A stretch of DNA of 64,000 nt from an uncultured Thermoanaerobaculia bacterium. GTDB lineage: Bacteria > Acidobacteriota > Thermoanaerobaculia > Thermoanaerobaculales > Sulfomarinibacteraceae. The translations under genes were made by a program, and so were the position numbers. Positions 30,785 to 50,768 of the stretch are shown one piece after another; the first letter of the stretch is position 1; each line of letters begins with the position of its first letter. The DNA lies in NCBI GenBank assembly GCA_964440565.1, contig CAYTTB010000006.1, positions 3,199-67,198 on the forward strand. Reading direction: 5' to 3'. Under the pieces are notes generated by a model. It was not told the DNA's origin, did no database searches, and saw only the letters and a list, made by a program, of their open reading frames with translations.

Positions 30785-31967
30785 CCGCGGGCGGCTCGGC
30801 CCCCGCCCCGCGGGAGGCCGCGGCCCGGACCGGTACCCGGGAGGACACGAAGTGGGCGGTGCCCCGCCGCTCGAGACAGCGCCGGAGGGCCCCCACCACC
30901 TCGGGATCGAACTGGCTCCCCGCGCACCGCTCGATCTCCTCGAGCGCCGCCTCGGGAGTGCGCCGCCTCCGGTACGGCCGCGGCATGACCATGGCGTCGA
31001 AGGCGTCGCAGACGCCGATGACGCGGCTCTCCAGCGGGATCTCGTTCCCGCGGAGACCGTCGGGATAGCCGCTTCCGTCGAGACGCTCGTGGTGCCCCCG
31101 GATCAGCGGTGCGAGATCGCTCAGCAGCGGAATCTCGCCCACCATCTCGGCCCCGAGGACCGGGTGGCGGCGGACCAGAAGCCACTCGGCGGAGCTCAGC
31201 GATCCCGCCTTGTTGAGGACCCGCTCCGGCACGCCGATCTTGCCGATGTCGTGGAGCGAGGCCGCGACCTCCAGCCGCCGGAGGCTCGCCCACCCGAGGC
31301 CCAGCTCTTCCCCGAGGTGGGCGCTCAGGTGAGCCACCCGCGCCGAGTGGCCCCGGGTCACCGCGTCCTTGGCCTCGAGCGCGGTGGCGAGGCCGCGGAT
31401 GATGCCCAGGAGGTTGCGGGCCTCGGCCTCCCGGTACCGCCTGCACCTGAGCCCCAGCGCCAGGCTCGCCGCCAGCGCCTCGGCGGCCAGCAGGTCGTCC
31501 TCCCCGAGCGCCCGGGGCTCCGGGCTCGCCAGCGTGAGTACGCCGAGGAGCTGCCCCTGGTACTCGATGGGCACGCTCACCGCGCTCAGGCGCTCGTACC
31601 CGAGCGCCGAGACCGGGGTGAACCTCCGGTCGGCCGTGATGTCGTGCACGAGGACCGGGCGCCCGAGCGCGGCCACGTACCCCGAGAGCCCCTCTCCCAG
31701 GACCACCTCGCCCCGGCCCGCACCACCGCCCCCGTCGAGCCCGCGCGCCGCGGCCACGCGGAGCTTGCGGCCGTCGTCGTCCACGACGAGCAGCAGGCCC
31801 ACGGGTACGCCCAGGTGGCGGCACGCGGCCTCCAGCGCCTCGTCGTGCGCCCTCTCGCTGTCTCCCACCAGGCAGTGCCCCGCCTCGGCCACCGAGCGCA
31901 GGCGGGCCACCGCACGCGCCGCCACCTCTTCAGGCCCCCCCACTGGCCGCTGCGGATCGTTACCCAA
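30777..31967 (-). CDS. GAF domain-containing HD-GYP phosphohydrolase (c-di-GMP phosphodiesterase type)
   Basis: N-terminal GAF domain (GEGLSGYVAALGRPVLVHDITADRRF). The HD-GYP domain carries HSARVAHLS, LHDIGKIGVP and HHERLDGSGYPDGL. TTG start at 31967 lies 5 nt after GGAGGG. Its stop overlaps the convergent cytochrome stop by 8 nt. Confidence 0.88.
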   Translation of the reverse strand: MGNDPQRPVGGPEEVAARAVARLRSVAEAGHCLVGDSERAHDEALEAACRHLGVPVGLLLVVDDDGRKLRVAAARGLDGGGGAGRGEVVLGEGLSGYVAALGRPVLVHDITADRRFTPVSALGYERLSAVSVPIEYQGQLLGVLTLASPEPRALGEDDLLAAEALAASLALGLRCRRYREAEARNLLGIIRGLATALEAKDAVTRGHSARVAHLSAHLGEELGLGWASLRRLEVAASLHDIGKIGVPERVLNKAGSLSSAEWLLVRRHPVLGAEMVGEIPLLSDLAPLIRGHHERLDGSGYPDGLRGNEIPLESRVIGVCDAFDAMVMPRPYRRRRTPEAALEEIERCAGSQFDPEVVGALRRCLERRGTAHFVSSRVPVRAAASRGAGAEPPAVT

Positions 31968-32057: not shown

Positions 32058-33587
32058 TCAGGCGTCCGGGTCGGCGGCGTCCCGCGCATGACCCGGGGCG
32101 TCGCCCAGGACGATACCGGCACGCTCGAGCATCCGCTCCATCGCCGGTGGCATCCCGGCCTCCGCCGCCATCCGCCGCATCTGCTCCCCCAGGTAGCTGT
32201 GCTCGATGAGGAGCTTGAGCACCGCCACCATGAACCGGCGCTTGTGCCCGGGCAGCTCCCCGAGGCGGCGGAACCGATCCCTGAAGAACTCCCCCGTGGC
32301 CCGGTGCAGCTCGCGGTTCATCTCCTCGACGGTCATCGCCCGCGGCTTCACCACCGCCTCCACGAGGTTGTACCTCCGGTAGTCGCGCGTCGCGAGGTAC
32401 GGCTCCAGCTCCGGGTAGATCTCGGCGTACGGCCACGGGGTGATGGCCAGGAAGAACGCCATGTCCGGCCCGTACCACTTGGCGAGCTCCACGGTGGCCC
32501 GGATGCTCTCCGGCGTCTCGTCCGGGGTGCCGAGGACGAAGCTCGTCTCGCTCACCATGCCGTGCGCGTTGATCAGCTCGATGGCGCGACGCGACTCCTC
32601 CACCTTCACGTCCTTCCGGTAGAGGTCGAGCGTGGCCTGGCGGGTGGATTCCACGCCGACGTAGATGTGCGCCACCCCGGCCTCGGCGTACCGCTCCAGG
32701 ATGTCCTCGTCGCGCACGATGTCCACCACACGGGTCTCCAGCAGCAGCTGCACCCCGACCTCGCGCTCGACGAGAAGGTCGAGGATGCGCTCCCACCGCT
32801 CCCGGGAGACCGTGGGCGTCTCGTCCGAGAGCATCGCCACCCGGACGTCGTACCGGTCGCGGAGGTGCTCGAGCTCGGCCACGAACGACTCCGGCGACCG
32901 CGCGCGCCAGCTCCGCTCCCAGAACAGCTGCTGCGAGCAGAAGGAGCACCGCTGGCGGCACCCCCGGGAGGAGCAGACGATGGCCAGCCGCCCGTCGGGG
33001 TACGGGCGGTACCGGTACGGCGTCCAGTCGAGCAGGTCCCACGCCGGGTGCAGGGCATCCAGGTCCGCCACGTACCCCCGCGGCGGGGTGCACACCGGGC
33101 GGCCCTCGTGCCGGAAGGCGATCCCCTCCACCTCCGCCAGGCTGCCGCCGGCGGCGACCGCCCGCACCAGGTCCGCGAGGGTCGGCTCCCCCTCCCCCCG
33201 GACGACGACGTCCACGTCAGGATCCTGCGACAGGATCTCGCGCCAGCAGAAGGTGGGGTGGACGTTGCCCAGCACCGTGAGGATTCCCGGGGCGATCCGC
33301 TTCGCGGTGGCGCACACCTCGCGGGCGTCGGGCTCCATCGCGGTGATCGCCGTGACCCCCACGATGTCCGGACGCCACGTCTCGATCTCGCGCGCGATGT
33401 CCTCGTGCGTGTGGTCGAGCGACATCGCGTCGTAGATCCGCACCTCGGCGCCCGCCTCCCGCGCGGCGCCGGCGAGGTAGACGAAGTGGAGCGGCAGCCA
33501 GGTCCCGGCCGACTCCACGACGCCCGAGTGGTACGGTGGCGTCACCAGCATCACCCGGGGCCGCCTCCGGCGCGTCACGACCTCCAT
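32058..33587 (-). CDS. B12-binding-domain radical SAM protein (BchE-like class B)
   Basis: Real start taken as ATG 33587 (MEVVTRRRRPRVMLVTPPY). N-terminal cobalamin-binding Rossmann region (VRIYDAMSL...DIVGVTAITA). Radical SAM cluster motif CSSRGCRQRCSFC (CX3CX2C). 509 aa. Last gene of the minus-strand cytochrome operon, 8 nt after the preceding stop. Confidence 0.85.
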   Translation of the reverse strand: MEVVTRRRRPRVMLVTPPYHSGVVESAGTWLPLHFVYLAGAAREAGAEVRIYDAMSLDHTHEDIAREIETWRPDIVGVTAITAMEPDAREVCATAKRIAPGILTVLGNVHPTFCWREILSQDPDVDVVVRGEGEPTLADLVRAVAAGGSLAEVEGIAFRHEGRPVCTPPRGYVADLDALHPAWDLLDWTPYRYRPYPDGRLAIVCSSRGCRQRCSFCSQQLFWERSWRARSPESFVAELEHLRDRYDVRVAMLSDETPTVSRERWERILDLLVEREVGVQLLLETRVVDIVRDEDILERYAEAGVAHIYVGVESTRQATLDLYRKDVKVEESRRAIELINAHGMVSETSFVLGTPDETPESIRATVELAKWYGPDMAFFLAITPWPYAEIYPELEPYLATRDYRRYNLVEAVVKPRAMTVEEMNRELHRATGEFFRDRFRRLGELPGHKRRFMVAVLKLLIEHSYLGEQMRRMAAEAGMPPAMERMLERAGIVLGDAPGHARDAADPDA

Positions 33588-33595
33588 ACGCCCCC

Positions 33596-33934
33596 CTATC
33601 CTCCCAGCATCCGCACCGTCCGCCACTGCCACCAGGTGCCGAGTCCGAACACCACGAGGAGCACCACGTGCTTGATCACCAGCAGCCGCCGTCTGGCGCG
33701 CTCCGCGTCGGGCCCGTAGACGTCGGGGACGTAGGTGAACCCGCGCCCGGCGCCGGTGAGCAGGACCACGGCGATGGCCGCGAGCCCCATGTGGAGATGA
33801 GCGCGGGCCAGCTCCGCGACGAGCTCGCCGGGCCCCCGGCGGGCGAGCACCCACACCGCCACCACCGTCGCGGCCCAGAACCCCGCCGCGAGGTCGTGGA
33901 CGAACCCGATCACGATGGAAAGCGCCGTCCGCAT
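33596..33934 (-). CDS. small integral membrane protein (3-4 TM), unknown function
   Basis: 112 aa from ATG 33934 within track ORF 33596..34873. Hydrophobic helices include ALSIVIGFVHDLAAGFWAATVVAVWVL and VIKHVVLLVVFGLGTWWQW. It starts 9 nt after the ccsA stop. Confidence 0.5.
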   Translation of the reverse strand: MRTALSIVIGFVHDLAAGFWAATVVAVWVLARRGPGELVAELARAHLHMGLAAIAVVLLTGAGRGFTYVPDVYGPDAERARRRLLVIKHVVLLVVFGLGTWWQWRTVRMLGG

Positions 33935-33942
33935 CCCAACCC

Positions 33943-34764
33943 TCACTGGAAGTACGCGGAGTGCAGGGTCGGCATCAGGAACGGCAGCACCAGGAGCGTG
34001 AGCACCACCAGCGCGAAGGCGCCGACGGCCGACCAGGCGGTGGCCCTCGGGCCCATCCGGAAGAAGCGCCGGGCGTGCAGCAGCGAACCGTAGGCCAGCC
34101 AGGTCACCAGAGACCACGTCTCGATGGGGTCCCACCCCCAGTACCGCCCCCACGCCTGGTTCGCCCAGATGGCGCCCGCCGCGATGTTCACGGTCCAGAA
34201 CACCATCCCGAATCCGACGGCGCGGACCAGCGTCGCGTCCAGCACCTCCACCGGCGGCACGCGGTCCGCGAACCGGCCCCACGCCCGGCCGCCGCGGAGC
34301 ACGAGCACCGCCAGTCCCACGGAGACCAGGAAAGCCGCCGCCGAGAGCTTCGCGAAGGTGACGTGGAACACCAGCCAGATCGAACGCAGGGTCGGCGGCA
34401 CCTCGCGGATCGCGGGGTCCGCGAACTGCGCCAGCGCCACCATCAGGATCGCCGCCGGCAGGACGACCACGGCGACGGGCAGCCATCGCGGCCGGAAGCG
34501 GACGAAGAGGAGCAGGGCCGCCACCATCACCCAGGCGTCCGACGACAGCACCTCGAACCGCATCATGTACGGCCCATGGCCGGCGGCGATCCAGCGGCCG
34601 ATCAACGCCGCCCCGTGGACGGCGAGACCCCCGGCCGCCGCCCACAGCCCGGCCCGCGCCCACCTCTCGCGCCCGAACAGGGTACCCGCGGTGACTCCCA
34701 CCGCGGCGAGGATGTAGACACCCACCGCCGCCCACTGGAGCCCGATCTGCCAGGCCGCGCTCAC
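33943..34764 (-). CDS. ccsA: cytochrome c biogenesis protein CcsA (System II heme-handling subunit)
   Basis: Trp-rich heme-binding motif WANQAWGRYWGWDPIETWSL with flanking conserved His residues (FHV, LLHARR). GTG 34764 forms a GTGA overlap with the upstream lipoprotein stop. The rest of track ORF 33943..35220 is shadow. Confidence 0.85.
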   Translation of the reverse strand: MSAAWQIGLQWAAVGVYILAAVGVTAGTLFGRERWARAGLWAAAGGLAVHGAALIGRWIAAGHGPYMMRFEVLSSDAWVMVAALLLFVRFRPRWLPVAVVVLPAAILMVALAQFADPAIREVPPTLRSIWLVFHVTFAKLSAAAFLVSVGLAVLVLRGGRAWGRFADRVPPVEVLDATLVRAVGFGMVFWTVNIAAGAIWANQAWGRYWGWDPIETWSLVTWLAYGSLLHARRFFRMGPRATAWSAVGAFALVVLTLLVLPFLMPTLHSAYFQ

Positions 34765-35267
34765 CGCCCGCTCCCGTGCGGTGCTCGGCCCCCACCCTCC
34801 CATCCGGGGAGACGGCGGCCCACCCTGGGCGGCTCCCGGAACCAGGTACGCGCCACGATCCACTCCCCCCCACGGCGCTCGAGGCGGTACGCCACGCGAT
34901 ACTCGTCCTCGGACTCCGGACCCGTGGGCCGGCCGCTCCCCAGCTCCCGCTCGCGGTACCGCCACCGCTCGTGCGTCACCGCGGTCACGGAGCCGTCCTC
35001 CTCCCGGCGGAACCCTTCCAGCTCGAGCTCGACGAGCTCCGCATCCAGCACCCGGCCCATGTCGAGCCGGACACCGATCAGACCGGTGATCTTCTTCGCC
35101 TCCTCCGGGCCGGCCACCGACTCGACCAGTGCGGGGTCCGCGGTGCGGTACGCCTCGACCACAGTGCGATTGTAATTCAGAATCGCCTTCTCCACGGTCG
35201 AGGCCGCGGGCCGCCCGCACCCTGCCACCGCGCCCGCCAGCGCCACCGCCGCCGCGAGCCTACGCAT
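34761..35267 (-). CDS. lipoprotein of unknown function inserted between ccsB and ccsA
   Basis: 168 aa. Signal plus lipobox MRRLAAAVALAGAVAGC. The soluble domain reads AILNYNRTVVEAYRTADPALV...EWIVARTWF. Both ends are translationally coupled. Confidence 0.6.
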   Translation of the reverse strand: MRRLAAAVALAGAVAGCGRPAASTVEKAILNYNRTVVEAYRTADPALVESVAGPEEAKKITGLIGVRLDMGRVLDAELVELELEGFRREEDGSVTAVTHERWRYRERELGSGRPTGPESEDEYRVAYRLERRGGEWIVARTWFREPPRVGRRLPGWEGGGRAPHGSGR

Positions 35268-36498
35268 CCGTGCACGCCCTCTCCCGCGCGGCGATCCGCT
35301 CGAGCAACGTCGCGCCGAGCGGGACGAACCGGCGCGGCCACACGGCCACCGTCACCCGCTCGACGTCCCCCTGGGGCTCCACCACCACCGCGACGTCGGC
35401 CGGTACCACCGCGAACAGCAACGTCACCCCCAGCACCACCAGCCCCATGCCGAGCCACGCCAGCACCAGGAACGGATCCTGGCCGCCCAGCAGCCGCACC
35501 CAGGGACGCACCCCCCTGTGGGTGACGCGTCCGAGTCCGGGAACGAACGCCGACTCCCCGGGCGCGAGCGACCCCACCCACACCGCCACCCCATCGCGGA
35601 GGAGGCGCAGGGCCGCCACCCCCGAGGGCGCCACCCGGACGCGCAGCTCCGATCCTCCGCCCAGCCGGGCCCGTCCGCTCGCCGCGGCGCCGGGGCGGTG
35701 CTCCGCCAGCACCGCGAGCCGGCGGCTGCCCACCTCGAGCAGGGCGGCGACCCCGTGCCGCTGGTCCAGCCACACGGTTCGCGAGCCCAGGTGCAGCGGC
35801 CGGTTGATGGCGAGGCGGCGCTGCCGGCCGGCCACGGAGACCACCGCCTCCAGCGCCCTGAGACGTCCACCCTCGCCGTACTCGGCGTGAACGCGCCGCA
35901 GCGTGAGGGGCCGCCGGAGTGCGAACGACCGGCCCAGCGCTCCCGGCCATTGCGCCGCCCACGCCGAGGAGACGGGGCGCAGCGTCTCGCCCTCCAGGAG
36001 GTCCACCACCCCGCCCGCCCCCAGGAGCGCACGCAGCATCCCCGCGATCGCCACCAGCAGGAGCCCGAGGTGCAGGAGCGGGGAGCCCGCCAGACCCAGG
36101 CGGCCGTGCCGCCTCACCCACGTCCTTCCCCCACCCGCCGGCCGCGTGAAGACCGTCCTGTGTGGCGCGGCGAGCAGCCGCCCGGGGGTGGGCCGGCGGC
36201 GCCACTCGCGTGGCAGGCGCCCGAGCAGGTCCCACGTCACCACCGCCAGCGAGGCGGTGCACGCCGTGACCACCGCCACGAACGGCCACGATGCGAACAC
36301 GTGGTCGAGGCCCAGCGCCGCGGCCCATCCGGGCGTGGGAGGCCCCGCGGCGCCGCGCTGCGGGATCGCCGCCCCCACCACCGCCAGGACGGCGAGCGCG
36401 CCGAGCTCCGAGGCGATCACCGCGCGGCGGCGCAGCACCCTCCCCGGACGGAGTCGCCGGGGGAAGGCCGCGGCGGCGCGCGCGGCGGTGACCGCCAT
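35260..36498 (-). CDS. ccsB: cytochrome c biogenesis protein CcsB/ResB-like
   Basis: ATG 36498 overlaps the giant cytochrome stop (TGATG). N-terminal TM with the VVGAAIPQ motif, a second TM (FASWPFVAVVTACTASLAVV), a large periplasmic domain and a C-terminal TM. This is the typical ResB architecture. Confidence 0.7.
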   Translation of the reverse strand: MAVTAARAAAAFPRRLRPGRVLRRRAVIASELGALAVLAVVGAAIPQRGAAGPPTPGWAAALGLDHVFASWPFVAVVTACTASLAVVTWDLLGRLPREWRRRPTPGRLLAAPHRTVFTRPAGGGRTWVRRHGRLGLAGSPLLHLGLLLVAIAGMLRALLGAGGVVDLLEGETLRPVSSAWAAQWPGALGRSFALRRPLTLRRVHAEYGEGGRLRALEAVVSVAGRQRRLAINRPLHLGSRTVWLDQRHGVAALLEVGSRRLAVLAEHRPGAAASGRARLGGGSELRVRVAPSGVAALRLLRDGVAVWVGSLAPGESAFVPGLGRVTHRGVRPWVRLLGGQDPFLVLAWLGMGLVVLGVTLLFAVVPADVAVVVEPQGDVERVTVAVWPRRFVPLGATLLERIAARERACTDA

Positions 36499-39400
36499 CA
36501 GTTCCAGTTCTCCGTCGCCGCCCGCCTGTGGTTGCCGGTGCACGCCGCCTGACAGTTCCGCTTGTTGTAGTTGTTGTACGCCGACGCCTTGGTGAACGAC
36601 TGGATCTGCATGGTGTTGAGATCACCGTTGTAGGCGTACCGGGGCGGCATCGCAGAGTCCCGGTCACCGATCAGGCGCGACATCTTGCCCCCGTGCGGGA
36701 TCACGATGTGGCAGGAGTAGCACCTGATGCTGGTCCGGTTGTGGTCCCCTTTCGAGTGCACGTTGTTCACGTTGACGTGGCAGTTGGCGCAGAAGCTCTG
36801 GTCGTACTGGTTCAGCTGCAGGTTCGGCCACGCGGTGTTGGGCCCGCGCAGCAGGAACTGCGCCGCCGAGCCGTGCGGTCCCTGGACCGCCCCAGCCGCC
36901 GTGTCGTCGTTGTCGTGGCAGTCCGAGCACATCATGGTCTGGTTGCCCGGGTTCGTATTCCACGGTGCCTTGAGCTGGGCCGCGGCCAGCGGCGTGGTGT
37001 TGGGGCCCGAGCCGGTCGTGGCCACCACCGGATGGAACGACCGGTTGTTGGGGTTGAACTCCTGCGCCACGTCGGTCTCCGGTGCGTTGGCCTGGCTCCC
37101 GTTGGCCGAGATGCCGTTCGGGGGGTTCACGCCGAAGGCGAAGGAGCTGTGGCACTTGAAGCAGATCTCGTACTCGTAGGTGGCCTCGTTCACCGGCGTG
37201 AAGTTGGACGCCGTGGTCCCCTGGAAGTTCGCCAGGCCGGCGTACGCGAAGCTCACCCCGGAGACCCCCTTGAGCGGGCTGTCCGCCGCGATCTGGTTGC
37301 GGCTGGCGGTGGCCGTGGCGCTCCAGTCGTGCCGGGTCGGCCCGGCGGCGTGCGGCGCGTGACAGTCGAGGCAGCTCACGTGGCGGCTGGCACCCGAATA
37401 GGTGCCGTCGTTGTAGCCCGCGCCCTGCTCGGCCACGGTGTCGTGCACGGTGTCGGCCTCCACCGGGTGGGCGACCGTCTTGGCCATCACCGTGGCCAGG
37501 TCCTTCCCCGAGAGGTCCTGGCCCTTCGTCCCGTTGCCGTGGCAGTTGTAGCAGATGAAGTCGGCGGGGGTGCCGGCTGGGTTGATGGAGCCCGCGAGCA
37601 GCTTCGGGTAGTCGGAGAAGTGCACCGCACCGAGGCCGGTCCCCGAGGCATCGGGGAACCCGTCGGTGCGGTTCGCGTGGCACTTGGTGCAGTTGCGGTC
37701 GAACGTCGAGCCGTCGTGGAGGGTGTACGTCCAGGTCCCGTACGCGTTGGCGGTGTAGTTGTGGGCCGAGGCGGCAAAGGTCGCCGCGTCGATCGCCGGC
37801 CGCCCGGTGGCCACCGCGTTGCGGTGGCACGAGACGCACATCCCGCCGCTTCCCGCTCCGGCGTCGAAGTCGGTCCTGGCCGGCGACCCGGCGGTCACGA
37901 GCCCGCCGCTGTCCCGGGCAACGGAACGGCTCGCCGCCGTCGAGGCGTCGGTGTGGACGTCGTACTCGTGGGTCGTGGAGCCCGGCGTGTTGTGGACGTG
38001 GTCGGTGTGGCACATGTTGACGCACGAGCGGTCCGCGGGAGCCACCGTGTCGAGCGGCGCGGTCCAGCTCACGCCGGAGTCCTGGAACGAGTCGTTCACC
38101 TCCCGGACGTTGCCCAGCGCGTGCCGGCTGGTCTTGGGCACGGCCCCCGTCATCCCCTCCCAGATGGTGGCGTGACACACGGAGCAGTCGGCGCGGCCCT
38201 TGCTCTCGCCGGCGGCGAACCCGTTCGAGTGCGGGTGACAGCCCACGCAGCGGGTGGCCTGGTTGTGGGTGTGGTCCCCGCCGGAGGTGTCGTTGCGGTA
38301 GTGGTTCGTCTTGGTGTGACAGACCTCGCAGATCCCGTCGGAGTAGTCGGTCAGCGAGGCACCGAGGTAGCCGCCCGAGGCCGGGTTGGTCGCGCCGGCG
38401 CGGTCGTCCTGGCGGAACACGACCGTCTTCACCCCGCTCGAGGGCGTGCGGAGCTGCTCCCGGATCAGGTAGATGTTCGTCGTCCCGTGCGGCGTGTGGC
38501 AGGTGAGGCAGTCCACCGCCCAGGACCCGTAGTTGCCTCCGGTCCGCTGGCTGGAGTGGGTCGGGATGTTGTGGCAGTCGAGGCAGATCTGCGATCCGTG
38601 CGTCCGCCGCAGGAGGGTCCCGCCCCCCGCCGGGCGCCCGCCGGCGTTCGCCACCTTGAACCCGCGGCCCGCCCGCGCCACGTTGCCCGCGGCGTCGGTG
38701 GCCTCCACCTCCAGGCGGTGGAAGCCGCCCGCGAGCACCGTGGTGTCGAGGGTGATCTCGTACACCGTGCAGGAGGGCCCGCAGTCGTAGTTCGCGCTCG
38801 CCGTCACCGCCGTCGACCAGCTCCCGCCGTCGAGGCGCCAGCGGACCGCCGAGCCCCCGGCCAGCCCGCCCTCGTCGTACACCTGCACCTTCGCCACCTC
38901 CGTCCCGCCCACGACGGCCCCCTCCGCGGGCACCAGGAAGACGATGGTCGGGGCCGCGGTGTCGGCGCCGCAGGCGGGGGTCGTGTACGGCCCCAGCACC
39001 TCGGGGTTGGTTCCGGTGACGCCGTCGGGGTCCGTGTAGGTCACCCGCAGCCAGTACTGGGTGCCCGGCGTCAGGTTGGTGACCAGGCAGACGCGCGGCG
39101 ACGGTCCCGTCACGGCGGCGCACGCCGTGGTCCCCGGCCACGCGTTCGTGGTGTTGTACTCCACGGCCATCGAGCCGTCGCCGTCCTCGTCGCCGGTGAA
39201 GTCGCCCGTCACGGTGATCTGCCGGCACGCCGACACCACGGCCGAGTTGGCGACGATGGTGGTGTCGTTCACGGTGCAGGCGGGAGTGGTGACCGGCCCC
39301 ACCACCTGCGGGTTGGTCCCGCTGACACCGTCGGGGTCGGCGAAGGTCACGCGGTAGTAGTACGTCGTCCCCTCGGTCAGGCCCGTATCCACGCAGACGC

Positions 39401-40994
39401 GCGGCGAGGGCCCGGTGACCCCGGAGCACACCGCCGTCCACGGGCCCGTCGCCGAGGCCCCGCGCTCGAAGGTGGTGCTCCCGTCCCCGTCGCTGTCCCC
39501 GTCGAACGGGGCCTGCACCGTGATCTGGCTGCACGAGTCGGCGGCAGCGGTCGCCGTGCCCACGGTGGTGCCGGGGACGGGCGCAGTCGGCGTGTGCGGC
39601 CCCGTCTCGCTCCCCACGGAGTAGTTCCCGCAGCCGTCGCGTGAGAAGATCTTGTAGTAATACCCGACACCGTTGACGAGACCCGTGTCGGTGAAGCTCG
39701 CGCCCGCGCCGACGTAGACCACCGTCGCGGTGCCGATGGTCTGCCCCGCGGTGTAGGTGGTCCCCTCCGCCGGCGCGACCCCTATCGAGACCGTGTCGCG
39801 GAGGATGAGGACATCGGCGAAGTCGGCGTCCCCCGGGTTGGTCCACGAGAGCGAGACCTGGCCGTCGCCCGGGGTCACCGTGCCCCACGTGGCGTCTCCC
39901 GGCGACAGGTTGTCCACGGTGATCGTCCCGTCCGTCGTGTCGTTGTACCGGACGGTGTTCGCGAGCGCATGGGCGATCCCGGTGACGGACGCGGTCACGG
40001 CGTACGCAGCGCCGGGCGGCGCGGGCATCGCCGCGTGTGTCCTGGGCACGACGTAGATCCGGTACGGGGTCGGGGTCCCGCTGGGCGCACTGAGCGACAG
40101 ACCGCTCACCGTCCACTGGTCGCCGCTCGGCGTCGTGGTGCTGCCGAGCACCGTGGTGCCGCTGCCGTCCCGGACCTGGACCTCGCCCACGCCCGCCGAC
40201 GTGCCGGCGGCGAGGGTCACGGTCACGGCACTGATCGTGTCCGCCGAACCCGCCGTGACCGAGAGATCGAACCCGTCCGCGAAGAGCGCTCCGTCACCGG
40301 GGCACGCCGAGGCGGAGGGCGCCTTCGCCGTGCCGTCGCCCACCACCGTCTCGGGCGTCACCGGCGTCGGGAAGCGGACCCACGCGTTGGCGCTCTCCAC
40401 CTCGAACTGGAACGCGTAGTCGCCGTTGTTGTCGTAGTTCACCCAGTACTCGATGACGAGGTAGTCGTTCGGCCCGAAGGTGTAGGAGGTCGTCTGGGTG
40501 GACAGGATGTTCTCGGAGTAGGTGCCGGTGCCCGTCGCGAAGTTGAACGTCCCGGAGACGGAGAACAGCAGCGTCCCGGACGTTCCCGTGCTGGCCCGGA
40601 ACACCCGCGCCTGGACGGTGGCGGTTCCTCCGGCCTGGTACTGGGTGACCCGGATCTGCCAGTTGAACGCCCAGTCCCCGGCGGGGATGACCCCATCGAT
40701 CGGGCTGGCACTCGCCCATCCGTACTGCGGGTTGGCACCCTGGGTGTCGGAGCCCAGGTGGTCCTGCCCCGGGTAGAAGAGGTAGGTGGTGCCGGGCCCC
40801 TGAGCCGGTGCCGCCACGAACAGCCCGGTCGTGAGGTCGGCGTTGTTGCCGGCGGTGGCGCTCATCTGCCAGTACTTCGTCCCGAAGGCGTGCTGGCTGT
40901 TTCGCAGGTAGAGCGTCGTCTGCGCGCCGGCGATGCTCGCCGTGCCGAGCAGGAGCAGCGCGAGCGCGATCCCGTGCGAGCCGCGGCGGATCAT
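36498..40994 (-). CDS. giant exported FN3/Ig-domain multiheme c-type cytochrome (13 CXXCH + 1 CX3CH)
   Basis: 1498 aa from ATG 40994 (ATGA overlap with the upstream stop). Signal peptide MIRRGSHGIALALLLLGTASIAGAQ. About 780 N-terminal residues are heme-free beta-rich modules (FN3-like, Ig-like). The C-terminal ~700 aa carry CLDCH, CLTCH, CEVCH, CVGCH, CSVCH, CVNMCH (CX3CH), CVSCH, CTKCH, CYNCH, CLDCH, CFKCH, CSDCH, CANCH and CYSCH. Confidence 0.9.
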   Translation of the reverse strand: MIRRGSHGIALALLLLGTASIAGAQTTLYLRNSQHAFGTKYWQMSATAGNNADLTTGLFVAAPAQGPGTTYLFYPGQDHLGSDTQGANPQYGWASASPIDGVIPAGDWAFNWQIRVTQYQAGGTATVQARVFRASTGTSGTLLFSVSGTFNFATGTGTYSENILSTQTTSYTFGPNDYLVIEYWVNYDNNGDYAFQFEVESANAWVRFPTPVTPETVVGDGTAKAPSASACPGDGALFADGFDLSVTAGSADTISAVTVTLAAGTSAGVGEVQVRDGSGTTVLGSTTTPSGDQWTVSGLSLSAPSGTPTPYRIYVVPRTHAAMPAPPGAAYAVTASVTGIAHALANTVRYNDTTDGTITVDNLSPGDATWGTVTPGDGQVSLSWTNPGDADFADVLILRDTVSIGVAPAEGTTYTAGQTIGTATVVYVGAGASFTDTGLVNGVGYYYKIFSRDGCGNYSVGSETGPHTPTAPVPGTTVGTATAAADSCSQITVQAPFDGDSDGDGSTTFERGASATGPWTAVCSGVTGPSPRVCVDTGLTEGTTYYYRVTFADPDGVSGTNPQVVGPVTTPACTVNDTTIVANSAVVSACRQITVTGDFTGDEDGDGSMAVEYNTTNAWPGTTACAAVTGPSPRVCLVTNLTPGTQYWLRVTYTDPDGVTGTNPEVLGPYTTPACGADTAAPTIVFLVPAEGAVVGGTEVAKVQVYDEGGLAGGSAVRWRLDGGSWSTAVTASANYDCGPSCTVYEITLDTTVLAGGFHRLEVEATDAAGNVARAGRGFKVANAGGRPAGGGTLLRRTHGSQICLDCHNIPTHSSQRTGGNYGSWAVDCLTCHTPHGTTNIYLIREQLRTPSSGVKTVVFRQDDRAGATNPASGGYLGASLTDYSDGICEVCHTKTNHYRNDTSGGDHTHNQATRCVGCHPHSNGFAAGESKGRADCSVCHATIWEGMTGAVPKTSRHALGNVREVNDSFQDSGVSWTAPLDTVAPADRSCVNMCHTDHVHNTPGSTTHEYDVHTDASTAASRSVARDSGGLVTAGSPARTDFDAGAGSGGMCVSCHRNAVATGRPAIDAATFAASAHNYTANAYGTWTYTLHDGSTFDRNCTKCHANRTDGFPDASGTGLGAVHFSDYPKLLAGSINPAGTPADFICYNCHGNGTKGQDLSGKDLATVMAKTVAHPVEADTVHDTVAEQGAGYNDGTYSGASRHVSCLDCHAPHAAGPTRHDWSATATASRNQIAADSPLKGVSGVSFAYAGLANFQGTTASNFTPVNEATYEYEICFKCHSSFAFGVNPPNGISANGSQANAPETDVAQEFNPNNRSFHPVVATTGSGPNTTPLAAAQLKAPWNTNPGNQTMMCSDCHDNDDTAAGAVQGPHGSAAQFLLRGPNTAWPNLQLNQYDQSFCANCHVNVNNVHSKGDHNRTSIRCYSCHIVIPHGGKMSRLIGDRDSAMPPRYAYNGDLNTMQIQSFTKASAYNNYNKRNCQAACTGNHRRAATENWN
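38970..39569 (-). repeat. tandem ~100-aa FN3-like module duplication inside the giant cytochrome
   Basis: Two adjacent units (39276..39569 and 38970..39275). Each carries an acidic DG(D/E)GS motif (DGDSDGDGS / GDEDGDGS). Both then share the block TGPSPRVC(V/L)..(G)LT.GT.Y..RVT(F/Y).DPDGV(S/T)GTNP.V.GP.TTPAC. Confidence 0.6.
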
Positions 40995-42013
40995 GGGCCG
41001 TCCTCCGTCTGCGTGTTGCCGTCCGCGTAGTGGACCCCGTGGCAGCTCAGGCACTGCACCCGGCCCGCGGCATCGAGGAGGTAGTCGTCACTCGCGATGC
41101 CGTCGCCCCCCGCCCCCTGGACGGAGCCGTCGCCGTCGAGCGGCGCCGTGCGATCCCACCCGTGGCCGTTGCTGCCCAGCGCCACCCCCACCGGGTGGCT
41201 CTTCACCGACCCGTCGTAGGTCTCCACCGCCGTGTGATCCATGGCCCACGCGCGGTGGCAGTCGCGGCAGAACCGGCTCCCCGCGGTGTTGTCCCCGGTG
41301 TCCAGCGGCACCCTCAGGAACGGGTAGGATGCCGTGAACCGCCACCGCTCGCCCACCGCGTAGGTGCCGGAGCCGAAGGTGATCGTGACCCCGCTGTCGA
41401 GCGCGATCGGGGTGCCGATGGTGATGCTCCTGTCGGGGAACCAGGTGGCGCCCTCGTCCTTGGAGTACTTGAAGCTCGAGTCCGCCACCGTGATCTCGAT
41501 CAGGTACGAGACACCGGACGCCCCGGTGTACGATCCACCCGCGGTCACGGTGCCGGTGCTTCCCAGGGAGGTCAGCCTGGCGACGGCACTGATCCTCGCG
41601 CGGCCTCCGTTCGCCGCCGAGGCCGCGTGCTGGTTGTGGCAGGTGGAGCACACGATGGAGCCCCCGTACACCCGCAGCGCCATCTCCTGGTTGGCCGGGA
41701 GCTGGGTGCCGACCGTCGGGTTGACCGCCGCCACCCCGTAGGCGTGGGAGATCCCGCTCTGCCCCAGCACGGCCATGTCGCCCGAGTTGATGGGCAGCGC
41801 GGAGGCGGTCCCCGTGGGGTTGTGGCACGACTGGCAGAGGTTCACGTTGCCGGCCACCGACGTGAGCGTCACCCCGGGGGCCGAGTGTCCCGTGTGGCAC
41901 GAGTCGCAGTCCATCCCCGCGCCCCAGTGGGGCGGATCCACGGCGGCCGCCGGTACCGAGACCGCGAGCGCCACGATCCCGACCCACACGCCTCGCCGTG
42001 CATGCGCCATCAT
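40991..42013 (-). CDS. pentaheme c-type cytochrome with a central non-heme beta domain
   Basis: 340 aa from ATG 42013 (MMAHARRGVWVGIVALAVSVPAAA signal). CXXCH motifs: CDSCH, CQSCH, CSTCH, CRDCH, CLSCH. A ~110-aa heme-free insert lies between hemes 3 and 4. The upstream part of track ORF 40991..42268 is junk. Confidence 0.85.
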   Translation of the reverse strand: MMAHARRGVWVGIVALAVSVPAAAVDPPHWGAGMDCDSCHTGHSAPGVTLTSVAGNVNLCQSCHNPTGTASALPINSGDMAVLGQSGISHAYGVAAVNPTVGTQLPANQEMALRVYGGSIVCSTCHNQHAASAANGGRARISAVARLTSLGSTGTVTAGGSYTGASGVSYLIEITVADSSFKYSKDEGATWFPDRSITIGTPIALDSGVTITFGSGTYAVGERWRFTASYPFLRVPLDTGDNTAGSRFCRDCHRAWAMDHTAVETYDGSVKSHPVGVALGSNGHGWDRTAPLDGDGSVQGAGGDGIASDDYLLDAAGRVQCLSCHGVHYADGNTQTEDGP

Positions 42014-42015
42014 GG

Positions 42016-44619
42016 TCACACCCCCCGTCTCGAGAGCACCGCCACGCCCGCGGCGGCGATCAGCAGCACGAGCAGCGCCCTCCCCGCCGGGCCCTGGACG
42101 GGTATGCCCGTGGCGGTGACGCCCGTCCCCTCGACGTACGCCACGTCCGGGCTCGACGGGGCGTCGCTTCTCACCTCGAGCACGGCGGTCCTGGTCCCCT
42201 CGGCGGTGGGCGCGAAGACGATCCTGAGCTCGCACGACCCACCCGGATCGAGCGTCCGGCCCGTGCACCCGTCCGCCGCCACGTCGAAGTCAGCGGGCTC
42301 GCGGCCGGAGAACGTGACCGCGCCGAGGTTCACCGCCGCTCCACCCACGTTCGAGACCGTCAGCACCCGCTCGAGCGACCTCCCGCCCACGGGCACGGCC
42401 CCGAAGACCACGACGCTCGCCGACAGGTCCAGGGAGGGACCCGCGATCACGCCCCGTCCGGCGAGAGCCACGGACACCGAGCCGGCCGGGGCGGCGAGGG
42501 CGATGCGGAGCGACCCCGCCCAACGGCCCGTCCCCTCCGGCCGGAAGCTCACGGACACCGAGCACACGCCGCCCGCCGGCACCGTACCGCCGCAGGTGGA
42601 GCCCACCACCCGGAACGGGGCCGCTGTCGCGACCTCCGACACCGCGAGCGGCCCCGCGCCGACGTTCCGGAGGTTCACCACCAGCGGAGCGCTCTCCACG
42701 CCCACCTCCTGGGGCCCGAAGTCCAGCGCCTCGGGCAGGGCCAGCGGCTGCCCGGCCCCCACCGCGGCGCCGTACCCCTCGAGCGCCACCGTCTGGGGCG
42801 TTCCCGGGGCGTCGGTGCGGAACGCCAGGGTCCCCTCCCGGGCGCCCGGCACCGCCGGCACGAACGTCACCGCGACCGTGCAGCTCTCGCCGGGGGCGAG
42901 CTCCCACGGGCAGGTGCCCGACACACGGAAGTCGCCCGTGGCCTCGACCCCGAAGAGGGCGAGCGGCGCCGACCCGGCGTTGGTGAGCGTGACCTCGCGC
43001 GGCCCGCCCACGGCCCCCACCGCGACGCTGCCGAAGGCGACCGCCGTCGGGTTCACGGCAGCGGCGGGAGCCGCGAGCTGGGTGTCCGAGAGGCGGAACA
43101 CCTCGAGCCGCCCGGTGTTCGCCGAGGCCACCACCAGCCGGCCCACGTCCTCCGCCACGGCAGCGTCGGTGGGCGTCTTCAGCTCGCCCAGCTCGTCACC
43201 GTACGTGCCCAGGATGTCGCGGAGCTGCCCGTCGAGGGTGAAGCTCTGCACCCGGTCCTGGAATGCATCCGCAGCGAACACCAGCCCGCCCGCGCTCGCC
43301 ACCGCTCCCTCGAGCTGGCCGAACTCGCCGGGCCCGCCCCCGAGGCCGCCGAACGACCCCAGGTACGTCCCGGTGCCGTCGTACCGGCGCACCACGCCGG
43401 CCACCGTGTCGGCCACGGCGAAACCACCTCCCGGAAGACCCTCGACGTCACGGGCCCCGAGGAGCTCGCCCGGCCCGCTTCCGTAGCCGCCGAAGCCGAA
43501 CAGCGCCTTCCCGGCCTCGTCGAACACCACGACCCGCCCACGGTCCCCGTAGAGCACCGCGTACCGGCGGCCCGTCCGGTCCACCGCCACGGCCAGCGGC
43601 GACACCGACCCGTCGCCCGGGTCCAGGTCACGCACCGGCCGCCCGAGCCGGTTCACCACCCTCGCCCCCGACGGGGTCGCCAGCACCAGGTTGCCGTCCC
43701 AGTCCACCTCGAGGTCGTGGACCGGCCCGAGCGGGAGAAAGGTCACGACCTCGCCCGAGGCGAGCCCCACCACCGCCACCCCCTCGAGCCCGTCGTCGGC
43801 GACGTACACCAGGCCGCCGGGCCCCGCCGCCACCCGGTGGGGCGCCACCAGCCCCGCGCTGATGAACTTCTCGGGCACGGCGTCGGTCACCGCCACGCCG
43901 ACCGTGGCGGTCGCGATCCCTCCGTTGCCGTCATCGGCGGTGCAGGTGACGGTCACGATCCCAGGGGTGGCCGGGGCCGAGAGCTCCGCGGTGAACGACC
44001 CGGTGGGGGTGATCGTCCCCGCATCGGCCGTCCACGTGAGCGTGACCGGGTCGCCGTCCGGGTCCGACACGGTCGCCGTGATCACGCTTGTCCCGCCGGG
44101 CAGCACCGCCTGCGGATCCGCCACCAGCGCGTCGAACACCGGGGGCTGGTTGCCGCCGGTGGTCACCTGGATCTGGAGGGTGGCGGTGGCGGTCTGCCGC
44201 CCGCCGCAGAGGAAGGTGCCGCTGTCGGCGATGTCCACCGTGATGGTGTAGCTCCCCTCGACGGCCGGCGCCTGCCAGGTGGCGGTGGTGGTGTACGGAG
44301 AGGCGGAGACACCGGGGTCGATGGCGGTGAACGTTCCGCCCGAGGCCGACCACGATGTGAGGTCGGCCCGGATGTACAGTCCACATCCGCTCGTACACGT
44401 GCCGGTGCAGTCGGGGTCGTGGGCGTCCAGCACCAGCGACACCGTGCCACCGGGAGCCACGGACGGCGGGCTCGCGGTGAACGCGTCCACCACCGGCGCC
44501 GCCGCGCGCGCCACCCCCGGGGCGGCGAGCAGCGGGGCCACGATCCCGGCGGCCAGGACGGCGCGCGGGATTCTCCCCAACTCGACCGGCGGAATGCGAA
44601 AAATTCCGCGCTTCGCCAT
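42016..44619 (-). CDS. exported multidomain surface protein: Ig/PKD-like domains + NHL-type propeller + three ASH/choice-of-anchor-D-like beta-sandwich repeats + C-terminal hydrophobic anchor
   Basis: 867 aa from ATG 44619; the 5' 503 codons of track ORF 42016..46128 are antisense to the kinase gene. Signal peptide present. Ig-like modules (TATVSDPDGDPVTLTWTA). NHL-like blades (GSGPGELLGARDV, GGGPGEFGQLEGAV, DRVQSFTLDG). Three repeats of the type FG.V.VG......L.N.G...L........F......C.....PG.SC...V.F.P. The tail reads IPVQGPAGRALLVLLIAAAGVAVLSRRGV. Confidence 0.8.
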   Translation of the reverse strand: MAKRGIFRIPPVELGRIPRAVLAAGIVAPLLAAPGVARAAAPVVDAFTASPPSVAPGGTVSLVLDAHDPDCTGTCTSGCGLYIRADLTSWSASGGTFTAIDPGVSASPYTTTATWQAPAVEGSYTITVDIADSGTFLCGGRQTATATLQIQVTTGGNQPPVFDALVADPQAVLPGGTSVITATVSDPDGDPVTLTWTADAGTITPTGSFTAELSAPATPGIVTVTCTADDGNGGIATATVGVAVTDAVPEKFISAGLVAPHRVAAGPGGLVYVADDGLEGVAVVGLASGEVVTFLPLGPVHDLEVDWDGNLVLATPSGARVVNRLGRPVRDLDPGDGSVSPLAVAVDRTGRRYAVLYGDRGRVVVFDEAGKALFGFGGYGSGPGELLGARDVEGLPGGGFAVADTVAGVVRRYDGTGTYLGSFGGLGGGPGEFGQLEGAVASAGGLVFAADAFQDRVQSFTLDGQLRDILGTYGDELGELKTPTDAAVAEDVGRLVVASANTGRLEVFRLSDTQLAAPAAAVNPTAVAFGSVAVGAVGGPREVTLTNAGSAPLALFGVEATGDFRVSGTCPWELAPGESCTVAVTFVPAVPGAREGTLAFRTDAPGTPQTVALEGYGAAVGAGQPLALPEALDFGPQEVGVESAPLVVNLRNVGAGPLAVSEVATAAPFRVVGSTCGGTVPAGGVCSVSVSFRPEGTGRWAGSLRIALAAPAGSVSVALAGRGVIAGPSLDLSASVVVFGAVPVGGRSLERVLTVSNVGGAAVNLGAVTFSGREPADFDVAADGCTGRTLDPGGSCELRIVFAPTAEGTRTAVLEVRSDAPSSPDVAYVEGTGVTATGIPVQGPAGRALLVLLIAAAGVAVLSRRGV

Positions 44620-44645
44620 CGGCAGGCCTCCCCCCTCCCGGTCCG

Positions 44646-44661
44646 TGCAACCAGGATGCCA
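44646..44661 (-). promoter_or_regulatory. sigma-54 (-24/-12) promoter of the 12.6-kb minus-strand cytochrome operon
   Basis: The minus strand reads TGGCATCCTGGTTGCA (TGGCAT-N5-TTGCA). It is followed by CGGACCGGGAGGGGGGAGGCCTGCCG and ATG 44619, so the promoter, RBS and start codon are all in register. Confidence 0.75.
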
Positions 44662-44721: not shown

Positions 44722-46191
44722 GTGGAGAGAAGCCAACCCAGCACCGGCCGCGCATGGCGGCTTCCGTGGCCGCCGCGGACCGTGTTCGTCGTGATCCCCC
44801 TCCACCTGGTGGCGTTCCTGTTGCTCTACCTCGGCGTGGTCCAGCTCGCGCTGAACCAGGTGACGGTGGCCCACGAGCAGGACATCAAGGTGATGATCCG
44901 GACGGTGGTCGAGGAGCTCCACCCCGCCATGGTGTGCGGCGACGCAGAGAAGGTCCGTGAGCGGCTCGCCCAGTACGTCGCGGCGCACCGGCTGCTGGCT
45001 CTGGAGCTGTACGACCGCCGGGGGCGCCCCCTGGGGCCCACGGCGCGGCAGGACCCCGAGGTGCGGGCGTTCCTCATGGCTCCGGAGCACGAGTCGTACC
45101 GGGTGATCCGCGCCGCGGGCTCGTCGGTGCAGCTCGCCCTGATGCGGATCACGGCGGAGGAGCGGTGCGCGCCCTGCCACACCCCCGGCGAGCCGCTCGG
45201 GGTGGCCTCCGTCGCCCGCGACCTGCGACACGAGCTCGCCGAGACGAAGCGCCGCCTCCGGGTGCACGCGGGGCTCCTCACCGGCGGCTGGATCCTCCTC
45301 GTGGGTCTCCTGAACCTCGTGCTGTCGCGGGCCGCCCGGCGGACCGTGCGGTCGCTCGCCGCCGGCGGCGAGGATGCCAGGCCCTCGCTGGCCATGGACC
45401 CCGTGGCCCTGGAACTCTACCGCTCGCTGCGCGCTACGCTCCGGGCCCGGCGCGAGGAGCGGCGGCGGATGGACGACCACCTCCAGCGCACCGACCGTCT
45501 CGCCACCGTCGGCACCATCGCCGCCGGGATCGCGCACGAGATCAAGAACCCGCTGGCCGGCGTCCAGGGGGCGCTCGAGCTGCTCGTGGAGGAGTGCCAG
45601 GACCACGACCGGCGCGACCTGTTCGAGCGAATGCTGGAGGAGATCCGGCGGGTACAGCGGACCGTGCAGTCGTTGCTCGCCTTCGCGCGGCCCCGGCCCG
45701 TCCAGCCCCGCGTGGCGGACCTCGGCGCCCTGCTGGCCGACGTCGCCGCCCTGCTCGAGCCCGCCTGCCGGCGGCAGGGGATCGAGCTCCGGACCCGCGT
45801 CGCGGCGGGCACCGGAAGCTTCGTGCTGGATCCCGAGCAGATCCGGCAGGTGCTGGTCAACCTGGTCACCAACGCGATGGAGGCCACCGGCCGCGGTGGC
45901 ACCGTCGAGCTGTCGGCGGCGCCGCTCCCGGAAGGTGACGGGGTCGTGCTGGCGGTGCAGGACGACGGCCCGGGAGTCGCCCCGGAGGTGGCCGGACGGC
46001 TGTTCGAGCCGTTCGTGACGACGAAGCTGCACGGCACGGGGCTCGGTCTCGCCGTGGCGCAGCGGATCGTGGAGGAGCACGGGGGCGAGATTCAGGTGGA
46101 GAGCACGCCGGGCCGGACCATCTTCCACATCGTCCTGCCGGCCCGGAGGGGAGGGGAAACGGATGCCGCTGATCCTGATCGTCGAGGATGA
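44722..46191 (+). CDS. sensor histidine kinase (NtrB-like) with a CXXCH heme-c motif in the extracytoplasmic sensor domain
   Basis: In the frame of ORF 41998..46191. TM1 is VFVVIPLHLVAFLLLYLGVV. The ~130-aa loop contains ERCAPCH (45166..45180). TM2 is LLTGGWILLVGLLNLVL. H-box GIAHEIKNPL, N-box VLVNLVTNAME, G-boxes DDGPGV and GTGLGL. Start is uncertain (GTG 44722 after GGAGGGGG; alternatives ATG 44656 and GTG 44782). Confidence 0.85.
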   Translation: MERSQPSTGRAWRLPWPPRTVFVVIPLHLVAFLLLYLGVVQLALNQVTVAHEQDIKVMIRTVVEELHPAMVCGDAEKVRERLAQYVAAHRLLALELYDRRGRPLGPTARQDPEVRAFLMAPEHESYRVIRAAGSSVQLALMRITAEERCAPCHTPGEPLGVASVARDLRHELAETKRRLRVHAGLLTGGWILLVGLLNLVLSRAARRTVRSLAAGGEDARPSLAMDPVALELYRSLRATLRARREERRRMDDHLQRTDRLATVGTIAAGIAHEIKNPLAGVQGALELLVEECQDHDRRDLFERMLEEIRRVQRTVQSLLAFARPRPVQPRVADLGALLADVAALLEPACRRQGIELRTRVAAGTGSFVLDPEQIRQVLVNLVTNAMEATGRGGTVELSAAPLPEGDGVVLAVQDDGPGVAPEVAGRLFEPFVTTKLHGTGLGLAVAQRIVEEHGGEIQVESTPGRTIFHIVLPARRGGETDAADPDRRG

Positions 46192-49689: not shown

Positions 49690-49705
49690 GACCGCGGAGG
49701 GACCG

Positions 49706-50746: not shown

Positions 50747-50768
50747 TACGCACTCCGCCGCGGCCCCT

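Follow-up and report, generated by a model that had tools for sequence, protein, structure and literature searches.

A multiheme cytochrome operon with a putative dedicated maturation cassette and a BchE-like B12 radical SAM protein in a Thermoanaerobaculia bacterium

Multiheme cytochromes power metal respiration, growth on electrodes and interspecies electron transfer, and their maturation is assumed to join unmodified heme to CXXCH-type sites. Here, we describe an eight-gene operon that places such cytochromes beside a set of putative maturation genes, found in a stretch of 64,000 nucleotides (hereafter, the window) from an uncultured Thermoanaerobaculia bacterium (assembly GCA_964440565.1, contig CAYTTB010000006.1, positions 3,199 to 67,198). 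The closest described systems come from Geobacter. In 2009, Aklujkar et al. reported that G. sulfurreducens and G. metallireducens both have four pairs of ResB and ResC/HemX, each co-transcribed with multiheme cytochromes; they suggested that a ResB/ResC pair is dedicated to the products of the neighbouring cytochrome genes (PMC2700814). Their biogenesis cluster #3 (Table S5; GSU2885-GSU2893 / Gmet_0592-0598) contains, in GSU2885-GSU2893, a ResB, a hypothetical protein, a ResC, an acyl-protein synthetase, a second hypothetical protein, a radical SAM protein, cytochromes with 27 and 7 hemes, and an NHL protein. GSU2887 and GSU0702 are predicted to be extracellular, with a role that is not known (bioRxiv 10.1101/2022.05.22.492868), and we found neither a reported function nor any mention of GSU2888 and GSU2889 in the literature.

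Two further bodies of work bear on this operon. Wolinella succinogenes has dedicated System II lyases, NrfI for CXXCK and CcsA1 for CX15CH, each encoded beside a cytochrome with the non-canonical motif (PMC12285233). Large multiheme cytochromes have also been described as evolving by modular 'grafting and pruning', in which heme modules are joined to domains of other families (bioRxiv 10.1101/2025.05.29.656830).

We read the window operon as a unit under sigma-54 control that would encode an electron-transfer complex of the envelope or the cell exterior together with a cassette specialised in cytochrome c maturation, acting on the C-terminal module and non-canonical tail of a giant cytochrome, and we give this reading a probability of about 0.5. 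The complex would consist of the anchor protein g1, the pentaheme g2 and the giant g3, and the cassette of g4 to g8. Its target would be the five-heme C-terminal module of g3 and, specifically, the tail C-x3-C-x3-H...ENW-COOH. The features are as follows:

44619 (ATG of g1) to 32058 (stop of g8), minus strand: the eight-gene operon
42016-44619, minus strand: g1, 867 amino acids, NHL/Ig (immunoglobulin-like) anchor protein
40991-42013, minus strand: g2, 340 amino acids, pentaheme cytochrome
36498-40994, minus strand: g3, 1498 amino acids, giant FN3/Ig-plus-multiheme protein; frame from the open reading frame (ORF) and third-codon-position GC
36501-37350, minus strand: five-heme C-terminal module of g3 (about residues 1215-1498, the last ~285 residues)
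36501-36557, minus strand: C-terminal tail of g3, NCQAACTGNHRRAATENWN, with a non-canonical Cys-x3-Cys-x3-His and an ...ENW end
35260-36498, minus strand: g4, 412 amino acids, ResB
34761-35267, minus strand: g5, 168 amino acids, probable NTF2-like lipoprotein
33943-34764, minus strand: g6, 273 amino acids, CcsA, GTG start at 34764
33596-33934, minus strand: g7, 112 amino acids, CopD-like membrane protein
32058-33587, minus strand: g8, 509 amino acids, BchE-like B12 radical SAM protein

A C-terminal heme module and its neighbouring maturation genes

The relationship between the module and the cassette is best seen against relatives of the giant. The closest of these, P0122, stands in a neighbourhood of kinase, activator, NHL protein, pentaheme, giant and GAF-HD protein, with none of g4 to g8; like P0124, which also lacks the cassette, it has a C-x5-CH tail end. 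DNA homology to the locus L082 runs from 47830 down to 37350, which is near residue 1215 of g3, breaks there, and resumes at 31656 in the GAF-HD gene. The parts of the giant compare with its relatives as follows:

Giant against P0122 (cassette absent): N-terminal part 72%, hemes 1-9 85%, C-terminal module 33%
Giant against P0123, P0126 and P0128 (type-A-tailed; cassette confirmed for P0123 only): N-terminal part 48-54%, hemes 1-9 50-58%, C-terminal module 56%

The body thus matches cassette-less relatives, whereas the C-terminal module matches relatives of the cassette type, and the window operon is therefore a chimera. We take these sequence comparisons as showing that the C-terminal heme module and the five maturation genes were grafted as one unit onto a P0122-like body.

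The same genes are linked in two independent scans and in at least six phyla, in the order module, ResB, NTF2-like lipoprotein, CcsA and BchE-like enzyme. In the forward scan, an alignment of g8 was run against one genome per species and gave 404 matched stretches; neighbourhoods were annotated with local profiles against the six-frame ORFs of 80 loci, and counts were taken over the 43 with at least 8 kb on each side. ResB or CcsA lay within 10 kb of g8 in 34 of these, g7 also in 34 (usually directly adjoining), and a multiheme ORF was near g8 in 30. The host phyla are Myxococcota, Acidobacteriota, Binatota, Victivallales, Nitrospirota and Desulfobacterota, and the hosts in detail are Anaeromyxobacteraceae, Thermoanaerobaculia, Binatota, Victivallales, Nitrospirota, Geobacterales, Desulfarculales and Desulfurivibrio. 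The reciprocal scan took metagenome contigs by the cytochrome module alone, independently of g8, with counts over the 34 loci that had at least 4.5 kb downstream. ResB stood at or within a few bases of the cytochrome stop codon in 27/34 loci, CcsA was present in 27 and g5 in 26, and a BchE-like enzyme followed within 6 kb downstream in 22, usually within 2-4 kb of the cytochrome end.

The cytochromes upstream of ResB in other loci differ greatly in length (235 to more than 2700 residues) and in number of CXXCH motifs (4 to 51), and all share the C-terminal module. These last ~285 residues are the only segment of the giant conserved beside the cassette in other phyla, and matches to a hidden Markov model (HMM) of them always fall at the protein C-terminus. 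The signature of the module, with its five CXXCH motifs, reads CxDCHxPH; EYQICFKCHS; EFNPNNxSxHP; MxCSDCH...GPHGS; FCxNCH; CxxCHIxVPHGG. An exhaustive search of 1.84 billion representative proteins returned 734 relatives at E<=1e-10, and among the best 149 of these 734, the tail histidine lies 1-6 residues past the last cysteine in 121. The last residue is tryptophan in 109 of these 121 displaced-His tails (...E-N/T-W-COOH; representatives P0209-P0357); tails with adjacent Cys-His mostly end in proline. Both types align position by position, the displaced one corresponding approximately to the CH type with 1-3 inserted residues, as in ...YDKDNCNSKATGC-HTG... (L140) and ...YSKSNCSSATNGCTTHSG... 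(L099). Since the tail aligns with the C-xn-CH motifs of related proteins, we infer that it is a degenerate, non-canonical sixth heme site.

Tail type also goes along with the other cassette genes. In the metagenome set, 21/25 loci with displaced-His tails have the radical SAM gene compared with 0/8 loci with adjacent Cys-His tails (CX3-7CH; Fisher p = 3.6e-5), or 10/14 vs 0/5 when clusters at 60% identity are counted. Four of the eight adjacent Cys-His loci keep a fused CcsBA and g5, and the other four have neither. A neighbour-joining tree built from 96 CcsA sequences has a clade of 74 that contains 44/46 of the CcsAs adjoining displaced-His tails and 0/2 of those labelled as adjoining adjacent Cys-His tails, while extra CcsA copies from the same loci fall outside it.

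The products of g4 to g7 are largely recognisable as parts of a System II synthase. The g4 protein matches Pfam ResB (PF05140) with 66.2 bits (cut-off 24.6), though just over model positions 8-262 of 486, and has four hydrophobic segments; it thus combines the domain and the multi-helix membrane topology of a predicted ResB/CcsB subunit. In g6, Pfam Cytochrom_C_asm (PF01578) is matched at E 6e-33 (114.7 bits; cut-off 29.9) with the WWD motif intact, and W.WDP.E.W, LH.R and further histidines are conserved among 54 homologs. Its score against the general CcsA equivalog TIGR03144 (153.7 bits) is below the curated cut-off of 187.6, and by these matches g6 is a divergent CcsA (ResC-like) paralog, the predicted heme-handling subunit. 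The g5 product is a lipoprotein with the lipobox VAGC and probably has an NTF2-like fold, to judge from sub-threshold Pfam matches in 3/5 homologs. We rejected g5 as a ResA/CcsX-type thiol reductase, as the lipobox cysteine is its only cysteine. The small membrane protein g7 has three transmembrane helices, a sub-threshold likeness to CopD, and conserved His13/Asp14 and Lys88/His89.

The sequence-only reading of this DNA had called the ResB/CcsA set dedicated, and the set does look dedicated on three counts: it was grafted into the operon together with the giant's C-terminal heme module, the CcsA clade tracks that module, and related genomes carry up to three ResB/CcsA pairs per locus (two or three in L084, L033, L062 and L093). 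We found no other ccs or ccm gene among the ~50 proteins scanned in the 64 kb window. As with NrfI and CcsA1, the cassette adjoins a cytochrome with a non-canonical motif, the start of g4 overlapping g3 and the tail being C-x3-C-x3-H. Two other points did not hold up. The same reading called a System II synthase within a cytochrome operon unusual, but Geobacter has provided precedents since 2009 (PMC2700814). It further noted CcsA isoforms specialised for non-standard heme motifs in epsilonproteobacteria; the sole CX3CH of g3 (residue 991) is kept in the closest relatives that have no cassette, and for that reason we reject it as what would require a private synthase.

The BchE-like protein and possible roles of the cassette

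The last member of the cassette is g8, predicted to be cytoplasmic, which combines a B12-binding domain (PF02310, 4e-27) with a Radical_SAM domain (PF04055, 2e-24). The cysteines of its CX3CX2C motif (C210, C214 and C217) are invariant in 25 sequences. Among NCBIfam models, the best match is BchE (TIGR02026), at 400.8 bits against a cut-off of 481.35, with residues 11-462 aligned to model positions 1-457 of 497; the runner-up is HpnR. By sequence, g8 is thus closest to the tetrapyrrole enzyme BchE yet outside that family's cut-off. Identity is 65-77% among the homologs listed and 54-75% for loci in other phyla, and a PDB sequence search with g8 returned only distant B12 radical SAM proteins. 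That g8 is a true BchE was rejected, given its score under the cut-off, the lack of chlorophyll genes (no match to bch/chl families among the window proteins scanned) and its non-phototroph hosts.

What might such an enzyme do beside a cytochrome c synthase? In the mechanism we propose, cytoplasmic g8, aided by the membrane protein g7, would act on a tetrapyrrole (heme) before export. The private ResB/CcsA pair would then export that heme and, together with the lipoprotein g5, attach it to the tail site, and ordinary CXXCH sites would be served either by the private synthase or by a general one. Heme binding at the tail, the specificity of the synthase for it, heme as the substrate of g8 and the cellular location of the complex are all predictions from sequence here. 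In its full form, with a BchE-family enzyme making a modified heme or preparing the site, and a dedicated ResB/CcsA/NTF2-lipoprotein synthase attaching that heme at a C-terminal Cys-xn-Cys-x1-3-His, the idea is tentative, and we hold it at appreciably less than even odds. If true, cytochrome c maturation would for the first time be seen to include a radical SAM step, and there would be a new heme c variant, spread over six or more phyla and, to judge from gene order, found in Geobacter sulfurreducens too.

BchQ and BchR, relatives of BchE, methylate tetrapyrrole side chains. Three considerations lead us to favour heme as the putative substrate of g8. The nearest curated family, BchE, acts on a tetrapyrrole, which favours heme over a peptide, as does the identity of 54-77% that g8 maintains across phyla while the tails vary freely. 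Additionally, BchE is reported to be membrane-associated (PMC10114771), which would fit a small membrane partner such as g7.

Several observations weigh against the reading as a specialised maturation cassette. An AlphaFold2 model of residues 1161-1498, built from a 21-sequence alignment, has a predicted local distance difference test score (pLDDT) of 39 and gives no support for the tail at a heme pocket, and every heme c site known to us has its histidine adjoining the second cysteine. A displaced-His tail occurs with no radical SAM gene nearby in L099/P0127, L101, L129 and L137, and in L048 a CSGYCH tail occurs together with one; the correlation between tail type and radical SAM could come partly from shared descent. 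The gene g7 appears in just 2/34 loci found via the cytochrome module, and certain g7-g8 pairs lack any ccs gene within 10 kb, as in L079, where the neighbours seem unrelated. Finally, loci of Nitrospirota and Geobacterales carry extra radical SAM paralogs and a LuxE-like enzyme, which hints at a more complex or different pathway.

An alternative that we consider unlikely is that the operon simply carries an ordinary, co-regulated copy of System II supplying its ~20 hemes, with the radical SAM protein and g7 unrelated to it and acting, for instance, in lipid modification or the anaerobic supply of tetrapyrroles. Only one heme motif departs from canonical CXXCH, the Geobacter pairs were proposed to serve 'efficient expression' of nearby cytochromes, and both the g7-g8 pairs found far from any ccs gene and the weaker matches of g8 to the hopanoid enzymes HpnR and HpnJ would sit well with it. 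Yet the cassette followed one particular C-terminal module in its move, and not the heme load; relatives with as many hemes do without it, and the radical SAM gene follows the tail type. The ResB start at or within a few bases of the cytochrome stop in most loci also argues against a mere question of supply, and the HpnR score is far under the cut-off of its family.

A more doubtful possibility is that the target is the peptide and not the heme, such that g8 would, for instance, C-methylate or cross-link a Cys, His or Trp residue of the C-terminal tail while this is still in the cytoplasm, before Sec export finishes. The odd motif lies at the extreme C-terminus, the last segment to be exported, most displaced-His tails end in tryptophan, and the radical SAM gene usually lies close to the cytochrome end. 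NCBIfam also gives lower-scoring matches to C-methyltransferases of ribosomally synthesised and post-translationally modified peptides (RiPPs), to the glutamine methyltransferase of methyl-coenzyme M reductase (MCR) and to Trp 2-C-methyltransferase, but no peptide-modifying family exceeds 136 bits compared with 401 for BchE. A strongly conserved g8 would have to act on tails whose sequence and spacing are widely variable, and part of the g8 loci lack a cytochrome of this kind within 10 kb.

Equally doubtful in our view is that no special cofactor is involved, with the tail cysteines forming a disulfide, the histidine serving as distal ligand of a regular heme, and the link between tail and cassette reflecting inherited history. 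The module does have more conserved histidines than five bis-His hemes need, the displaced histidine is unlike all known heme c motifs, and some members have only a single cysteine. Against this stand the positional homology of the tail to the C-xn-CH of relatives, an association that spans at least six phyla and survived the graft of the module, and the co-variation of CcsA clade with tail type. That g8 is a hopanoid methylase was dismissed, as HpnR is matched at 173 bits against a cut-off of 650.

The electron-transfer genes, their control and their surroundings

All eight genes, with the coordinates and junctions given for them by the sequence-only reading, were confirmed. The window has a GC content of 71-79%, which makes ORF lists noisy, and frames were therefore picked by third-codon-position GC, which is 0.88-0.97 for the operon. 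A metagenome contig from the Joint Genome Institute (JGI) has identical DNA, and its independent calls (340, 1498, 412, 168, 273, 112 and 509 amino acids for g2 to g8) all match, including an identical copy of the g3 protein. From g1 to g8, the junctions are a 2-nucleotide gap, ATGA, TGATG (where the g4 start overlaps the g3 stop), an 8-nucleotide overlap, GTGA and two 8-nucleotide gaps. We found no sigma-70-like promoter and no minus-strand terminator within the operon, though this is weak evidence at 74% GC.

The proposal of sigma-54 control likewise stands, in that a tightly coupled unit is preceded by a consensus element and faces a divergent kinase and NtrC-type activator. Further features around the operon and within g3 are:

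44646-44661, minus strand: predicted sigma-54 type -24/-12 promoter TGGCATCCTGGTTGCA, an exact TGGCAYN5TTGCW, ending 26 nucleotides before the g1 ATG
44722-46191, plus strand: divergent sensor histidine kinase (Pfam HisKA, HATPase_c and a sensor domain; frame by third-position GC, start codon uncertain)
46163-47524, plus strand: divergent NtrC-type response regulator and sigma-54 activator (Pfam Response_reg, Sigma54_activat at E 2e-62, HTH_8)
30777-31967, minus strand: GAF-HD-GYP protein, a ninth gene ~90 nucleotides downstream of the operon
38625-40994, minus strand: g3 residues 1-790, heme-free, with a signal peptide, an N-terminal beta domain and tandem FN3/Ig-like modules
38007-38024, minus strand: CVNMCH, the sole CX3CH of g3 (residues 991-996)

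The putative promoter has GG at -24, GC at -12, the expected spacing and a cognate activator adjoining it, and its consensus occurs twice in the window against 0.02 expected. In L082, the closest relative, TGGAACCGGGCTTGCA stands at the equivalent position, and the synteny of the histidine kinase is kept in L082 and L086. The GAF-HD-GYP gene, which comes directly after the giant in relatives without the cassette, may be co-transcribed with the eight genes.

The secreted protein g1 has PKD/Big_9-type Ig domains and three choice-of-anchor-D/ASH Ig domains by Pfam and NCBIfam, and its hydropathy profile shows a hydrophobic C-terminal helix followed by RRGV. It had been described as an NHL/ASH protein, of which the ASH part was borne out; NHL is absent among its Pfam matches, and the NHL-like propeller comes from an NCBIfam ScyF/NHL match far under cut-off and from tblastn similarity to NHL proteins of the window. 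The pentaheme g2 is a c-type cytochrome with a signal peptide, 5 CXXCH and Pfam Paired_CXXCH_1, and it alone has a weak match to an MtrC-MtrF domain (E 6e-4, 19.8 bits vs cut-off 30). In two relatives, g1 and g2 form a single ORF (L086 6708-10004, 1098 amino acids; L088 2416-6867, 1483 amino acids), and this fusion suggests that the two proteins act as a complex.

For the giant itself, the predicted architecture of heme-free beta-sandwiches and a 14-heme end agrees with the structure models and the motif count. There are 13 CXXCH and one CX3CH, the latter being the fourteenth motif, all from residue 804 onward, and a 15th candidate heme site lies in the C-terminal tail. AlphaFold2 models residues 25-800 as all-beta with a mean pLDDT of 79.8, using a 28-sequence alignment, and Foldseek against the PDB matches this model to strings of FN3/Ig domains (fibronectin, contactin, RPTP-sigma and titin-associated proteins) at E 1.7e-13 to 1e-9. 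The Pfam fn3 match in g3 alone is sub-threshold. A PDB sequence search with g3 had a best E of 0.4, with no similarity to extracellular cytochromes of the MtrC/OmcA or OmcS/OmcE/OmcZ type. A surface location of g1 to g3 is plausible, as predicted from the anchor-type domains of g1, the FN3/Ig arrays and an N-terminal domain in common with giant surface proteins. That N-terminal beta domain (window ~40200-40920, residues ~25-260) has 40-48% identity to the N-terminal ends of very large FN3/DUF2341-type proteins that are not cytochromes, with sources in Vicinamibacterales, Latescibacteria, Parcubacteria, Nitrospirae and Geobacter.

Several neighbouring genes also relate to cytochromes. Converging on the GAF-HD-GYP gene is the gene of a 234-amino-acid multiheme cytochrome (30080-30784, plus strand), a pairing kept in L082 and L086, and just past the operon are two large TPR proteins (26196-29784, minus strand) with sub-threshold CcmH/CycH TPR matches (E 3e-4 and 7e-6). 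In a second cytochrome cluster (47564-57204, plus strand), a 565-amino-acid cytochrome with 11 matches to paired CXXCH is accompanied by three smaller multiheme proteins, two NHL propellers, a prolyl isomerase resembling SurA and a 595-amino-acid protein without a Pfam match. The only other perfect sigma-54 consensus of the window, TGGCACGCGCCTTGCA at 50944-50959, lies inside this cluster, which presumably resembles the accessory clusters beside nanowire cytochromes. A RuBisCO-like protein followed by a cupin (11318-12891, plus strand) is unrelated to the operon.

Some loci in other genomes are more elaborate than that of the window. In one 20-kb locus of Thermoanaerobaculia (L084 1-19263), an NHL, pentaheme and giant trio is flanked by two radical SAM genes of the BchE-like kind and three pairs of ResB/CcsA. 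In Thermodesulfovibrio and Geobacterales (L068 2809-11476; also L052, L060, L063, L064, L066, L070, L073 and L074), several genes stand between CcsA and g7-g8. One or two of them are extra paralogs of the B12 radical SAM gene, and the others encode a LuxE-like acyl-protein synthetase and a pilin-like product; acyl-protein synthetase is also the annotation of GSU2893 in G. sulfurreducens. The latter loci hint at a longer pathway.

Comparison with known systems

Of the described systems, Geobacter cluster #3 matches the window operon in gene content, a link that rests on gene order and heme counts, not on sequence. The Geobacter sp. locus L062 combines the g8 family and a 7-heme protein bearing the C-terminal module, with genes ordered as in GSU2885-GSU2893. 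Cluster #3 differs in its additional acyl-protein synthetase, and the window giant in its heme-free FN3/Ig front half and sigma-54 control. NrfI and CcsA1 resemble the window operon in that a CcsA-type synthase paralog lies beside a cytochrome with an odd heme motif. They differ in being fused CcsBA proteins of genetically proven specificity, whereas the window motif is a C-terminal Cys-xn-Cys-x1-3-His, and we know of no radical SAM, NTF2-like lipoprotein or CopD-like partner for either. With BchE, g8 shares the B12-binding domain, the CX3CX2C motif and a near full-length alignment; it differs in its score under the cut-off, its metal- and sulfur-respiring anaerobe hosts, and its ccs neighbours in 34/43 loci.

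If the B12 radical SAM protein is part of the maturation line, a family of hundreds of sequence clusters would use a cofactor or attachment chemistry that has so far escaped notice, and such cytochromes could be expressed successfully in other hosts only if the cassette were supplied. This is testable in a genetic model, through the GSU2885-GSU2893 cluster of Geobacter sulfurreducens. Even on a conservative reading, the chimeric graft is a clear natural case in which a heme module travelled with the genes for its own biogenesis.

We found no paper tying a B12/BchE-like radical SAM protein to CcsA, ResB or multiheme cytochrome maturation. Four aspects of the window operon seem to be novel, and we came across no publication on any of them: the likeness of the radical SAM protein to BchE, the conserved C-terminal module with its tail, the way in which the radical SAM gene goes with tail type, and the graft of module plus cassette. 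Compared with cytochromes known to evolve by 'grafting and pruning', the heme module grafted here came along with five maturation genes.

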